Source: Acidobacteriota bacterium (GTDB taxonomy: Bacteria; Acidobacteriota; Thermoanaerobaculia; Multivoradales; J023). From it: a DNA stretch of 64,000 nt. The first letter of the stretch is position 1. Every line of letters starts with the position of its first letter. The notes beneath the pieces were generated by a model, which did no database searches, was not told where the DNA came from, and worked only from the letters and a program-made list of their open reading frames with translations. The DNA lies in the NCBI GenBank assembly GCA_039194425.1, contig JBCCVZ010000022.1, positions 48,451 through 112,450 of the forward strand. Reading direction: 5' to 3'. The position numbers and the translations under genes were made by a program. Of the stretch, positions 22,588 through 42,378 are shown piece after piece.

Positions 22588-22747
22588 CGACTCTCTCCTC
22601 TCGTCGACTCGGTCGTAGAGATCTTTGGCAGCTTTTTTTCGCGACCTTCCATAGCCCGGCCCTCGCCCTCTCGCGACGGCCGAATCGCTTGAACTTTCTT
22701 CGGTGGAGGTCCGGCGCCCTCACGCGCACGGAGCTCGAGGAGGATCC

Positions 22748-23878
22748 GTGACATCGACTGCCCCGGACGATGAGCTGGAGCGCATCGAGCGTGCGCCGAT
22801 CGAGCGCCTCGGCGCTCTGGACCACGAGCGCCACCGCGTCGACCGCCTGCTGCGACGGCTCGACGAAGAGACCGGCGACGCGTCGGCGCGCATCGTGCGC
22901 AAGATCGCCGACGACTACCGCATGCGACTCGCCGACTTCGACGCCGAGATCGCGACTCTGCGCGGTGACGCGCTCGCGGGCATGCGCCGGCTGCAGGCGC
23001 TGGTCGCCGCCCGGCGCGACGCGCACGAAACCGCACGCGACGCGCACGATGAGCTCGAGCTGCGCCTGCGCATCGGCGAGTTCGACGACGATTCCGGCGC
23101 CGGCGACCGGCTGCGCGCCGCCGCGCGGCAGGCCGAGGCCTGCGCGCAGCGCTTCGAGGCGGCCCGCGGCATGCTCGACGTGCTCGCGGCCGCGGCGCCG
23201 TCTCTTGTCGACGAGCCACCGCCCAGCACCGACGCGCCGCCCTTCGACGGAGCGCCGCGGGCCAGCGACGGACCACGGGCCAGCGACGGGCCACGGGCCG
23301 ACGAGACACCGTCGCTCGAGCAGCAGCTCGCCGACGTCGCCGACGACCTCGACGCCACCCACGGCGGCGAGCCCGCGCCGGAGCCCTTCGACACCGGGGC
23401 GATGCCGCGGCTGCGCGCCGATGACACGCCTCCGGGCGGCAGGTCGTACGATCTCGGCGACGGCGAGGCGAACGAGGTTGCTCCGCCGATCAGCGTGGAC
23501 AAGCTGCTCGGCGCGACGATGTCGATCTCGCGCGCCGACTTCGATCTCGGTGAGCTGCAGACCCAGCGCGAGACCGTCGTCTGTCTGGCGTCGAGCGACG
23601 TCGACGATCTCTACTACATCCTCGAACCGGAGATGACCGTCGGACGTCTCGCCGACGGCGGCAACCAGATCGTGATCGACGACCTTGCCGTTTCGCGCCA
23701 GCACGCCAAGATCCAGCAGGAAGACGGTCGCCACCTGCTGATCGACCTGAGCTCGGCGAATGGCACCTTCGTCAACGACGAGCGCATCACCACGTGCACC
23801 CTCGAGCTCGGCGATCGCGTACAGTTCGGCCCGGCCGGCTTCGTCGTGCGTCCGCTCACCGACCTGCTCACCAACTGA
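22748..23878 (+). CDS. Coiled-coil protein with C-terminal FHA (forkhead-associated) domain
   Basis: GTG start 6 nt after AGGAGGA. The C-terminus YYILEPEMTVGRLADGGNQIVIDDLAVSRQHAKIQQEDGRHLLIDLSSANGTFVNDERI is a canonical FHA domain. The N-terminal half is heptad-rich and helical. Confidence 0.75.
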   Translation: MTSTAPDDELERIERAPIERLGALDHERHRVDRLLRRLDEETGDASARIVRKIADDYRMRLADFDAEIATLRGDALAGMRRLQALVAARRDAHETARDAHDELELRLRIGEFDDDSGAGDRLRAAARQAEACAQRFEAARGMLDVLAAAAPSLVDEPPPSTDAPPFDGAPRASDGPRASDGPRADETPSLEQQLADVADDLDATHGGEPAPEPFDTGAMPRLRADDTPPGGRSYDLGDGEANEVAPPISVDKLLGATMSISRADFDLGELQTQRETVVCLASSDVDDLYYILEPEMTVGRLADGGNQIVIDDLAVSRQHAKIQQEDGRHLLIDLSSANGTFVNDERITTCTLELGDRVQFGPAGFVVRPLTDLLTN

Positions 23879-23886
23879 CGCCGCCA

Positions 23887-40964: not shown

Positions 40965-41065
40965 GCCTCCTATCGCGTCGGCTCTCCGGGCAGAGGCTCA
41001 CGCCGAGTCATGATCACTGTGTGCAGGGGTTTGGTCTCTCTCCGAGATCGCGTATATTGCGCCGC

Positions 41066-41890
41066 ATGGCATCGACTCATGCGAAGGACGACGACTTCCG
41101 CGACCTTCTGCTCACGTTCGCGGCCGGCGACACGATCGTTCGGGCCGGACAGACCGACGTGCAGATGTACCTGGTCGATTCGGGGCGCGTCGAGCTGGTG
41201 AAAGGTGCCGGCCCGGCCGAACGCATCGTGTCGACGCGCGAGGCGGGCGACTTCTTCGGCGAGCTGTCGGCGCTCGAGGAGGGAGCGCCACACCTCACCA
41301 CCGCGCGCGCCGCCACCGCCGTGCGAGTCCTGCCGCTCGACGCCGCCGCGCTGGGTTTCATCGTCCGCGAGCGCCCCGAGCTCGCGCTGCGGATCCTGCA
41401 CCGTCTGGCGCTGCGCCTGCGCACGCTCGACGAGGAGACGCTGCGCGCTCACGAGATCGCCGCCGGCCCGCTGGCCGCGGAGCGCAAGCCGCTACCGGCC
41501 GCCGACCAAGTCGTCGCCCAGGCGACGCGGCGCGGCGGCACGGCGCTCCCCGACGCCGCGCTGGTCCACCGAGACACCGGTCAGCGCTTCCGGCTCACGC
41601 TCGACCGCAGGCTGTTGATCGGGCGCTTCGACCCGGTGACCCAGAGCGCACCCGACATCGACCTCGAGATCGTCGATCCGCAGCGCACCCTGAGCCGGCG
41701 CCACGCCTCGATCTGGCGCGACGGCGCCTCGATCTACGTCCGCGAGGAGCCCGGGGTCGCCAACGGCACCGCGCTCGACGACCAGTCGCTCGCCGCCGAA
41801 CAACCGATGCGCATCCGCCCCGGGCAGACGCTGCGGCTCGGCCTGGTCGAGCTCGAGCTGGACCTCTCGCCGTCGAAGAGCACGCCGTGA
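41066..41890 (+). CDS. Cyclic nucleotide-binding (CAP/Crp-like) domain + FHA domain protein
   Basis: Start at MASTHAKDDD. cNMP-binding beta-roll with REAGDFFGELSALEEGAPHLTTARAATAVRVL. C-terminal FHA: LLIGRFDPVTQSAPDIDLEIVDPQRTLSRRHASIWRDGASIYVREEPGVANGTALDD. Divergent from the sigma-54 activator gene. Confidence 0.75.
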   Translation: MASTHAKDDDFRDLLLTFAAGDTIVRAGQTDVQMYLVDSGRVELVKGAGPAERIVSTREAGDFFGELSALEEGAPHLTTARAATAVRVLPLDAAALGFIVRERPELALRILHRLALRLRTLDEETLRAHEIAAGPLAAERKPLPAADQVVAQATRRGGTALPDAALVHRDTGQRFRLTLDRRLLIGRFDPVTQSAPDIDLEIVDPQRTLSRRHASIWRDGASIYVREEPGVANGTALDDQSLAAEQPMRIRPGQTLRLGLVELELDLSPSKSTP

Positions 41891-42378
41891 GCCGCTTCGA
41901 GCTCCTCGAGCTCCGGCGCCTCGACCACTACGTCGATCTCGCACTCCGCGGGCGCTGTACGGCGTACTTCGCCAACTCCTTGCACGATGCCTTCGAGAAA
42001 GAGCTCGCCGGCGGCGCCTCGCTCGCCGTGCTCGTCGACTGCTCGGCCCTCGAAGAAATCGAGGGGACCTGCGTGCACGAGCTCGTGCTCGCCTCGCGCC
42101 AGCTGCGCGCCCGGCGCGGTGCGCTCGGCCTCTACGGCCTGGAGAGCGTCGTCGCCGAGAGCCTGCGCGAGGCTGGTCTGCTCGACGACCTCGAGACCTA
42201 CCCCACCTGGAGCGCGGCACGCGAAGCGGCGGACGCGAGCATCCTGCGCGCACGCCGCGTCGCCGCGGCGACGCGCATCTTGTCGCAGACGACCGACACC
42301 GCGACCCTCTCGCGCCGCTCCCTGCGGCACAAGGACGGTGAGCGCGTCGGTCGCCTGCTCGAACGCATCCTGGGCTGA
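41887..42378 (+). CDS. STAS-domain protein (anti-sigma-factor antagonist, SpoIIAA-like)
   Basis: GTG start overlapping the previous stop (GTGA). LAVLVDCSALEEIEGTCVHELVLASRQLRARRGALGLYGLESVVAESLREAGL fits the STAS fold, but it is not a canonical SpoIIAA around the phospho-Ser position. Confidence 0.6.
   Translation: MSRFELLELRRLDHYVDLALRGRCTAYFANSLHDAFEKELAGGASLAVLVDCSALEEIEGTCVHELVLASRQLRARRGALGLYGLESVVAESLREAGLLDDLETYPTWSAAREAADASILRARRVAAATRILSQTTDTATLSRRSLRHKDGERVGRLLERILG

Follow-up and report, generated by a model that had tools for sequence, protein, structure and literature searches.

The export cassette associated with NHLP-leader peptides was discovered through phylogenetic profiling by Haft et al. 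in 2010, in a paper that describes no regulatory genes (PMC2887384). Lipolanthipeptides of the selidamide and nostolysamide kind are recognized by an NHLP or Nif11 leader, a LanM synthetase, a GNAT of ~350 amino acids (aa) that acylates lysine, and a core with a Lys close to its start; the selidamide survey explicitly, and related studies with it, set regulators aside (PMC8784127, PMC13060382). The mycobacterial ABC exporter Rv1747, in turn, carries two FHA domains and is activated by PknF via threonines in a disordered linker (PMC3138270, PMC8339232). Genome mining for peptides that are made on the ribosome and modified after translation (RiPPs) usually discards regulators, and the switching of clusters is the main obstacle to obtaining products from uncultured phyla. 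Here, we have kept the regulators. This paper is about one stretch of DNA from a soil-type genome of the Acidobacteriota (contig JBCCVZ010000022.1; we call the whole 64 kb the window) in which a LanM operon with its own exporter is surrounded by genes for FHA, cyclic-nucleotide (cNMP)-binding, and STAS domains: what are these genes doing there, and how might such an operon be run?

Our answer, to which we would give a probability of roughly 0.55, is that an NHLP–LanM–GNAT (selidamide-like) operon with its own NHLM exporter is run by a phospho-threonine-based regulatory cassette. A first-pass annotation of this DNA had proposed a signalling layer with export gated by both phosphorylation and cyclic nucleotides, and in what follows, the partnership among the genes stands up well, and the gating by cyclic nucleotides becomes doubtful. 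The parts are all known: the NHLM cassette and the selidamide-like chemistry on the one hand, and enhancer-binding proteins of bacteria, FHA/Hanks signalling, and STAS domains on the other. What we did not find in the literature that we searched is the recurrent cassette itself, a sigma-54 promoter on NHLP precursors, or FHA-bearing exporters of the HlyB/PCAT type with the Thr motif described below; literature searches that paired FHA, cNMP, STAS, or sigma-54 with NHLP or with lanthipeptide clusters turned up nothing relevant.

A Recurrent Regulatory Cassette

The G+C content of the window is ~70%, and raw lists of open reading frames (ORFs) are useless at that composition; genes were called from third-position GC (GC3), and the calls match the public ones for a 19-kb Logan contig of identical sequence. 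The operon lies on the minus strand, from 40964 down to 23887, in the order sigma-54 activator, NHLP precursor, LanM, GNAT, two OEP/TolC-like proteins, HlyD-like adaptor, and two ABC transporters (ABC1 and ABC2). The elements around its start are these:

39647..39661, minus strand: -24/-12 promoter TGGCAGGCATCGTGC (TGGCAG-N5-GTGC), 60–74 nt upstream of the precursor ATG
39798..40964, minus strand: sensor-less sigma-54 enhancer-binding protein, exact start uncertain (Sigma54_activat 178 bits, aa 38–206; AAA_lid_14)
41066..41890, plus strand: cNMP-binding and FHA adaptor (cNMP-FHA), 274 aa, without a DNA-binding domain (PF00027 ~55.4–55.9 bits vs. 27.5; PF00498 C-terminal)
41887..42378, plus strand: STAS protein, 163 aa (PF01740 34.6 bits vs. 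22.6; PF13466 36.0 vs. 29.2)

Do these genes belong together, or are they merely neighbours? In two sister metagenome-assembled genomes (MAGs), the STAS and cNMP-FHA genes again stand divergent from a sensor-less enhancer-binding protein followed by NHLP precursor, LanM, and GNAT and, further on, HlyD and ABC1 (L004 and L007), and the cassette is found in three more distant loci from genome collections and assemblies (L008, L023, and L034). L008, whose cNMP-FHA protein is only 41% identical, has a pair of NHLP genes, an activator gene with a frameshift, and both cNMP-FHA and STAS. To these we added a survey of Joint Genome Institute (JGI) metagenomes, scanned with the precursor alignment, in which 80 loci were annotated by locally built hidden Markov models (HMMs); all of the loci are Acidobacteriota-like, high-GC metagenome contigs. 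Counting only those whose contig reaches 4.5 kb or more beyond the precursor on the upstream side (n = 21, including two pairs of near-duplicates), every one has the activator, 19 have cNMP-FHA, and 17 have STAS. An FHA-bearing PP2C/SpoIIE phosphatase is found in 5 of the 21, a Hanks kinase in 4, and a further FHA protein in 10; by Pfam, these further proteins are FHA-RDD membrane proteins, an FHA-trypsin-like protease, and FHA-GAF-SpoIIE proteins.

Read from the other end, the association is one-directional. GTDB species genomes gave 48 cNMP-FHA loci of full length, and the set of NHLP, activator, and STAS is found in only two of them, L023 and L034; a third locus among the 48, L040, has STAS, FHA-GAF-SpoIIE, and an ABC2. 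The NHLP-linked cNMP-FHA proteins form essentially one clade in an unsupported neighbour-joining tree, apart from ~44 generic paralogues without such neighbours, and two STAS-linked loci (L040 and L060) nest inside that clade. The first-pass annotation had named homologous loci without these partners as the sign of chance adjacency; we looked for that, and the partners are kept in both the sister and the metagenome loci. Judged by gene order across these loci, this is a real, recurrent regulatory cassette and not a set of chance neighbours, and we think it nearly certain that its genes are functionally linked.

The Activator and Its Promoter

The AAA+ module of the activator starts at aa 38, with no sensor domain called by Pfam, which agrees with its earlier description as sensor-less; its loop reads GSFTGA (of the GAFTGA type), and its top solved relatives are ZraR, NtrC1, and PspF. 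All 32 orthologues at the score threshold are built alike: 319–388 aa long (31 of them 362–388), without an N-terminal domain, and with a C-terminus that reads ..YQrFMDFLRHHxLKP. The conserved C-terminal ~60 aa are a candidate helix-turn-helix, for which HTH_8 was not called at E values up to 0.01. One apparent sensor-bearing activator, a 1110-codon ORF in L128, proved to be a high-GC artefact; the real L128 activator has ~370 aa.

L004 and L007 keep the promoter's GG-N10-GC in a spacer whose remainder is 64% identical. Across the survey, TGGCA-N6/7-NTGC is found in 40 of 86 unique NHLP upstream regions compared with a mean of 0.7 and a maximum of 3 in shuffles, and many of the upstream regions without the motif precede second, tandem copies of the precursor. 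A conserved -24/-12 promoter with an activator next to it implies that the operon needs this activator, and we consider transcription dependent on sigma-54 and the activator to be very probable.

The space between activator and precursor is occupied in one metagenome locus (L094) by a 498-aa protein with an N-terminal HAD-hydrolase domain (8277–9773), which is absent from the window. Similar gaps of ~1.5 kb are seen in L095, L097, L101, L118, L123, L131, L147, L148, and L153.

The cNMP-FHA and STAS Pair

The 274-aa protein is identical to the public call P0020, its gene is divergent from that of the activator, and its two domains both score above their cutoffs, bearing out the earlier description of an FHA domain fused to a cNMP-binding one. 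The family profile matches PKG, PKA, and CRP with E values down to 2e-45, and the phosphate-binding cassette of the family is canonical (FGE..PR[ST]A; consensus FGEMSVLEDLPR[ST]A[ST]ARA). In the protein of the window, FGE is present and is followed by ..EEGAPHLTTARA, with a one-residue insertion and a His in place of the phosphate-binding Arg. The same replacement and insertion are seen in L004 and L007, and the residue is Gln in the sister locus L141; PR[ST]A is intact in every other NHLP-linked member. No GC3-supported ORF of the window encodes a nucleotide cyclase. With the Arg lost, the cassette interrupted, and no cyclase in the window, the cyclic-nucleotide gating that was proposed for this locus is weakened to the point of doubt, and the sequence makes genuine cNMP binding by the 274-aa protein rather unlikely.

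The STAS protein, for its part, is confirmed by two profiles (PF01740 and PF13466), both above their cutoffs, and it has no sequence match in the PDB at E values up to 1. Its start overlaps the stop of the cNMP-FHA gene by 4 nt, exactly as in L004 and L007. The position of the SpoIIAA phospho-Ser (Ser58) is Gly in these three loci and Ser in most related ones; no locus with a visible PP2C phosphatase lacks the Ser, and some loci in which none is seen have it too. An RsbW-like HATPase_c_2 domain is found in only two of the loci searched, L040 (Pfam) and L060 (a weak phmmer match). Cyclic-nucleotide sensing and partner switching may be plausible for the wider family; for the locus in the window, these residues make both doubtful. 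The subclade in which the cNMP and STAS sites are degenerate is the subclade in which an FHA domain is fused to ABC2.

Another family, DUF7005, recurs beside NHLM exporters and signalling genes (L040, 15026–16600; L131, 640–3288; and L169, 3948–5021), in one case fused to an RsbW-like HATPase_c_2 kinase domain.

Kinases and Phosphatases

The first-pass annotation saw no Ser/Thr kinase or phosphatase in the window, and profile searches of the GC3-supported ORFs found none either. Who, then, writes the phospho-threonines? In the sister locus L007, an 851-aa Hanks kinase with TPR repeats (kinase domain, then a hydrophobic segment, then the repeats) comes directly after STAS, and in the window, this slot is filled by a choice-of-anchor I gene (42395–44029, minus strand). 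The gene row of L141 reads activator, two NHLP precursors, LanM, a 466-aa protein, cNMP-FHA, a Hanks kinase of 1026 aa, and a PP2C phosphatase of 251 aa. Kinases are found in L023 and L095 also.

FHA-GAF-SpoIIE proteins stand beside STAS or the activator in L094, L095, L097, L101, L114, and L040, with Pfam confirmation for L094 and L040 only; those of L095, L101, and L114 are read from local PP2C and FHA HMM matches, and that of L097 from a PP2C match only, its ORF being cut at the contig end. L008 has a GAF-SpoIIE protein without an FHA call. Because kinases, PP2C, and FHA-GAF-SpoIIE proteins sit in the sister loci, we take writers and erasers to belong to the system; going by these neighbours, their absence is local to the window, where the genes have been lost or relocated. 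The only kinase-fold protein of the window is SelO, a protein adenylyltransferase with a pseudokinase fold (47362–49224, plus strand), ~5 kb from STAS.

Three FHA Domains and an FHA-Bearing Exporter

At the far end of the operon are the other two FHA genes:

22748..23878, plus strand: standalone FHA protein, 376 aa, as in the public call (Pfam FHA ~63.5 bits, aa 297–361)
23887..27243, minus strand: ABC2, NHLM ABC transporter permease/ATPase, 1118 aa (TIGR03797 811.3 bits vs. 709.4, aa 416–1115)
26209..26799, minus strand: cyclic-nucleotide-binding (CNB)-like fold of ABC2, ~aa 149–345, probably two tandem beta-barrels (structure model)
26866..26868, minus strand: codon of Thr126 in the disordered linker, motif S-R-T-Q-R-I, candidate phospho-acceptor and FHA-docking site
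26923..27162, minus strand: FHA domain of ABC2, aa 28–107 (PF00498 46.2 bits, aa 36–99; PF16697 47.5 bits)

The three FHA domains that had been claimed were all found again by Pfam, above the PF00498 gathering cutoff of 20.7 bits (standalone ~63.5, ABC2 46.2, and the 274-aa protein ~30.4–30.8). As read from the sequence, the residues that contact phospho-threonine are intact in all three (GR/SRQH/NGT, GR/SRRH/SSN, and GR/SRRH/NGT), and the G-R, S-x-x-H, and N residues are invariant across the cNMP-FHA family. PF16697 (Yop-YscD_cpl) matches all three domains as well.

The Pfam domains of ABC2 are FHA, ABC_membrane, and ABC_tran; with the structure model, the protein reads from its N-terminus as FHA, a disordered linker, a CNB-like fold that is probably tandem, a long helix, a C39-like region, a transmembrane region, and a nucleotide-binding domain. 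The nearest solved relatives of the FHA domain are Mycobacterium tuberculosis FhaA, GarA, and FHA-1 of Rv1747 (E values of 7e-7 to 9e-6; Rv1747, 9e-6). Between FHA and the CNB-like domain, the linker Thr is invariant, with I, V, or M at +3, in all 10 FHA-ABC2 proteins that were aligned, and the stretch that holds it (residues 111–142) has a pLDDT below 50 in the structure model. A common preference of FHA domains is pT-x-x-[I/L/V]. Phospho-threonine-dependent control of ABC2 is a reading toward which we lean, although only slightly, from the sequence.

Relatives of this exporter were easily missed. An exact 8-mer scan with the full ABC2 protein returned no relatives and was replaced by alignment-based scans, and a word-indexed search with aa 1–420 gave one partial match; the wider FHA-ABC2 family came from an exhaustive HMMER search with the same residues, in which FHA and the CNB-like region occur together in no fewer than 16 clusters formed at 50% identity. 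Full-length FHA-NHLM exporters carry one, two, or three FHA domains (Pfam), and in L141, the exporter gene after ABC1 starts with an FHA domain at the contig edge.

The first-pass annotation had also placed a cNMP-like domain on this exporter. Of that claim, the fold holds, in a confident model and probably twice over; a Pfam profile match and a phosphate-binding cassette do not go with it. PF00027 has no match on ABC2 even at E = 10, the hhalign probability of the region against the cNMP profile is only 61%, and the fold has no recognisable phosphate-binding cassette. Modelled with an alignment of homologues, residues 141–420 (pLDDT 83.7; pTM 0.78) take up the CNB fold of beta-barrel and helix. 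This fold is seen in most of the ~970-aa NHLM ABC2 proteins that were aligned, from Nostoc to uncultured lineages; to judge by that alignment, it is common to NHLM ABC2 proteins and so not special to the locus in the window. The full model of ABC2 has its best fold matches in HlyB and PCAT1, over ~710–730 columns, and because these matches are to the full-length proteins, residues ~415–540 are read as C39-like. BLASTP of this region against the C39 domain of ABC1 is not significant (E 0.15), and in Pfam, Peptidase_C39 is called on ABC1 only.

The standalone protein has a coiled-coil-like N-terminus, a low-complexity linker rich in Pro and Asp, and FHA at its C-terminus. L002 and L003, from the two closest MAGs (ABC2 identity 66–68%), show the same succession of FHA-ABC2 and convergent FHA protein; they are other contigs of the same MAGs as L004 and L007. 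The orthologues (612 aa in L002) hold the same convergent position, with FHA and a helical N-terminus conserved and the linker variable. The gene stands tail to tail with ABC2, its stop codon 8 nt from the other (23878–23887) and likewise in L003; with no room for a terminator, the two transcripts must overlap. The public call for this gene begins at 22748, and the start given in the first-pass annotation (22703) probably lies 45 nt too far upstream. A -24/-12-like site in front of it (22626–22640) is without GC, is not conserved in L002 and L003, and was dismissed as chance. On its other side lies a gene for an autotransporter beta-domain protein (20977–22587, minus strand), as it does in a sister MAG (L002, 14740–16287), and this gene may be part of the conserved neighbourhood.

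The Operon and Its Product

The remaining genes of the operon are as follows:

27245..29497, minus strand: ABC1, C39-peptidase ABC exporter of the PCAT type (TIGR03796 ~977 bits vs. ~853; Peptidase_C39 101.8)
29497..30639, minus strand: HlyD-like adaptor of the NHLM cassette (TIGR03794 258.6 bits vs. 156.2)
30643..34774, minus strand: two large TolC/OEP-like outer-membrane proteins, 669 and 704 aa (PF02321 OEP 73.8 and 49 bits)
34774..35856, minus strand: GNAT acyltransferase, 360 aa (PF00583 37 bits)
35825..39232, minus strand: LanM, class II lanthipeptide synthetase (TIGR03897 489.5, DUF4135 259, LANC_like 106 bits)
39261..39587, minus strand: NHLP-leader precursor, 108 aa (TIGR03793 54.4 bits vs. 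cutoff 50.9)

The TIGR models for HlyD, ABC1, ABC2, and the precursor all score above their curated cutoffs (four of four). By these profile matches, the core operon is of a known kind, an NHLP-leader class II lanthipeptide cluster joined to the three-gene NHLM export cassette of Haft. The leader ends in ..SLAGG and is followed by the core NTVKGDANCSDATASTVVEIQASLF, and GNAT is kept beside LanM in most related loci. One core template is common to ~100 precursors (L004–L168): the Lys is N-terminal, Cys occurs once, and the C-terminus reads T-V-x-[IV]-[NE]-[AT]-S-L-[IF]. Prochlorosin cores are hypervariable; a template that is conserved and not hypervariable hints at a conserved target or receptor.

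Other Genes in the Window

At the left end of the window, an open-ended ORF of ~900 codons (3–2702, plus strand) has a partial match to class-I aminoacyl-tRNA synthetases (E 1e-23), and directly downstream is a complete ValRS (2808–5531, plus strand), an odd tandem of two class-I synthetase-like genes. Also on the plus strand are a 1195-aa protein with TPR and CHAT (caspase-like) domains (6298–9885) and a protein with an IPTL-CTERM sorting signal (14130–15119).

Discussion

How might the parts work together? In the scheme that we favour, the sensor-less sigma-54 activator would drive the operon from the precursor's conserved -24/-12 promoter, a step for which both the sequence and the comparison of loci speak. 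An activator family without an input domain calls for a trans-acting partner, and the divergent cNMP-FHA and STAS unit may be that missing input module, working in trans as PspA does on PspF; this part we hold tentatively, at somewhat less than an even chance. The signal would be written by a Hanks Ser/Thr kinase and erased by a PP2C or FHA-GAF-SpoIIE phosphatase, such as those in the sister loci, and the FHA domains would read the phospho-threonines. In the clade of the window, ABC2 has gained its N-terminal FHA domain along with a disordered linker that holds the invariant Thr-x-x-[I/V/M], and phosphorylation of Thr126 with binding by FHA could switch or assemble the exporter in the way that PknF acts on Rv1747. 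A single kinase would then govern transcription and export alike. With the cNMP site (Arg to His) and the STAS site (Ser to Gly) both degenerate, the two proteins of the pair are here probably adaptors and not sensors of cyclic nucleotides or of partner switching.

A number of observations weigh against this scheme, and we gather them here. Pkinase, PP2C, SpoIIE, and HATPase_c_2 have no match in the GC3-supported ORFs of the 64-kb window, and Thr126 is something we infer to be a phospho-site at the level of a motif. No conserved Thr beyond the AAA+ core motifs stands out in the activator as a target for FHA. The survey HMMs were built from few seed sequences and run on six-frame ORFs, and contig ends limit the view; the neighbour-joining tree of cNMP-FHA proteins carries no support values; and the placing of the STAS phospho-site depends on the SpoIIAA and RsbV reference sequences used. 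Then there are the arrangements that point to the transporter as the target. In two FHA-less NHLM cassettes, a 184-aa cNMP_binding protein comes directly after ABC2 (L169, 13323–13877; L170, 12925–13479), and no activator is found in the ~10 kb of flank retrieved on each side; these proteins are related to the cNMP-FHA family profile (hhalign 95.8%). In L040, an ABC2 lies at a distance of 6.6 kb from cNMP-FHA, STAS, and FHA-GAF-SpoIIE, and neither an activator nor a precursor is found within 10 kb.

These arrangements lead straight to the main rival, a role for cNMP-FHA and STAS in serving the transporter. They would be accessory subunits of the exporter, STAS docking on an ABC ATPase, as the STAS protein MlaB docks on the ABC ATPase MlaF, and the cNMP-like modules, whether free or fused to ABC2, binding each other or the NHLP leader; their position by the activator would mean co-expression only. 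The CNB-like fold in most of the ~970-aa ABC2 proteins aligned fits such a role, as do the 184-aa proteins after ABC2 in L169 and L170 and the L040 set, near an ABC2 and without an activator. Against it, the pair adjoins the activator in 19 of 21 loci (STAS being found in 17), 9–10 kb from the exporter genes at the operon's far end, and the activators are uniformly without an input domain, which calls for a partner in trans. We consider it unlikely. A rival of another kind takes the kinase's absence as meaningful and the FHA domains as phosphorylation-independent, structural or scaffolding modules that assemble an envelope-spanning export complex. YscD of type III secretion systems has an FHA-like cytoplasmic domain, and the match of all three domains to PF16697, the lack of a kinase or phosphatase in the window, and the coiled-coil-like N-terminus of the standalone protein, which suits scaffolding, would all follow. 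The same domains, however, keep the Arg, Ser, His, and Asn that contact phospho-threonine (three of three), and for two of the three, PF00498 scores at least as high as PF16697; kinases and PP2C phosphatases are present in orthologous loci, and the exporter FHA has an invariant Thr-x-x-aliphatic motif beside it. This second rival strikes us as a shade less likely than the first.

There is also the plainest explanation, that the signalling genes have nothing to do with the operon and stand beside it in a genome that has many of their kind. Acidobacteriota have many FHA and kinase genes, and ~44 of the 48 cNMP-FHA paralogues in species genomes do indeed lack NHLP, activator, and STAS neighbours. 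But order and orientation are kept across loci whose cNMP-FHA proteins are only 32–54% identical, the unsupported tree puts the linked proteins into what is essentially one clade, and the cNMP-FHA and STAS genes overlap start to stop; chance is contradicted by the survey and can be excluded for practical purposes. We are left, then, with control through phospho-threonines as the reading that we prefer, and one might take it a step further. An exported, lipidated, single-ring lanthipeptide might be sensed outside the cell by a membrane Hanks kinase. The phospho-threonines that such a kinase wrote would be read by several FHA proteins simultaneously: the activator would be licensed by cNMP-FHA with STAS, and the exporter would be opened or assembled by the FHA domain of ABC2 together with the FHA protein that stands tail to tail with it. 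Such autoinduction is, on the genes at hand, improbable.

What might all of this be good for? A whole family of acidobacterial lanthipeptide clusters can be recognised by a recurrent cassette (activator, cNMP-FHA, and STAS, joined in some loci by a Hanks kinase with PP2C or by FHA-GAF-SpoIIE), and a family of HlyB/PCAT-type peptide exporters is marked by FHA domains, one to three in number, and by a Thr-x-x-aliphatic motif that does not vary. Expression of the activator could awaken the cluster. If export is gated as we suppose, FHA-controlled transport extends from one mycobacterial case to the secretion of peptides, and if autoinduction is true, this is a new type of peptide signalling circuit.

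Comparison with Known Systems

With the NHLM cassette of Haft, the locus shares a HlyD-like adaptor, a C39-peptidase ABC1, a peptidase-less ABC2, and an adjacent NHLP precursor whose leader ends in Gly-Gly; it departs from that cassette in the N-terminal FHA domain and linker (~140 aa) added to ABC2 and in the inclusion of two large OEP genes. With the selidamide and nostolysamide clusters, it shares an NHLP leader, a class II LanM, a GNAT of ~350 aa, a Lys near the core start, and ABC export, whereas the cluster here is acidobacterial, has a single-Cys core with a conserved template, and is known from its genes alone.

Like Rv1747, ABC2 is an ABC exporter with an N-terminal FHA domain, a disordered linker, and candidate phospho-threonines, and its relatives have two or three FHA domains. 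Unlike Rv1747, it has a core of the HlyB/PCAT peptide-exporter type, with a C39-like domain and a TIGR03797 match, and no operon kinase accompanies it in the window. The domain order of Rv1747 is nucleotide-binding domain, then transmembrane domain. To go by these cores, which are of unrelated classes, the resemblance is one of function and not of membership, and the fusion to FHA arose independently.

The signalling side has its own parallels. In type VI secretion, a Hanks kinase, a PP2C phosphatase, and an FHA protein (PpkA, PppA, and Fha1) control a secretion machine, and L141 has just such a triad of kinase, phosphatase, and FHA reader beside its operon; the machine here, unlike that one, is a peptide exporter of a type I-like kind; a sigma-54 activator comes in addition, as do a cNMP domain and STAS, and the triad is incomplete in the window. 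In STAS partner switching, SpoIIAA or RsbV works with an RsbW kinase and a PP2C phosphatase, and several related loci do pair STAS with a SpoIIE-type phosphatase (by Pfam in L094 and L040 and by local HMM in L095, L097, and L101) and keep the phospho-Ser; the STAS protein of the window differs in having Gly for Ser and neither a phosphatase nor an RsbW-type kinase in the window. Sensor-less activators are elsewhere controlled in trans, PspF by PspA and HrpS by HrpV, and the activator here is likewise an AAA+ protein without an N-terminal regulatory domain, with conserved neighbours that could supply the input, although these candidate partners (cNMP-FHA and STAS) are unrelated to PspA or HrpV and the partnership is one that we infer. 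Lantibiotics, finally, have their LanRK two-component autoinduction loop, and the autoinduction circuit, if true, would be its counterpart in the Acidobacteriota, built from eukaryote-like signalling parts.

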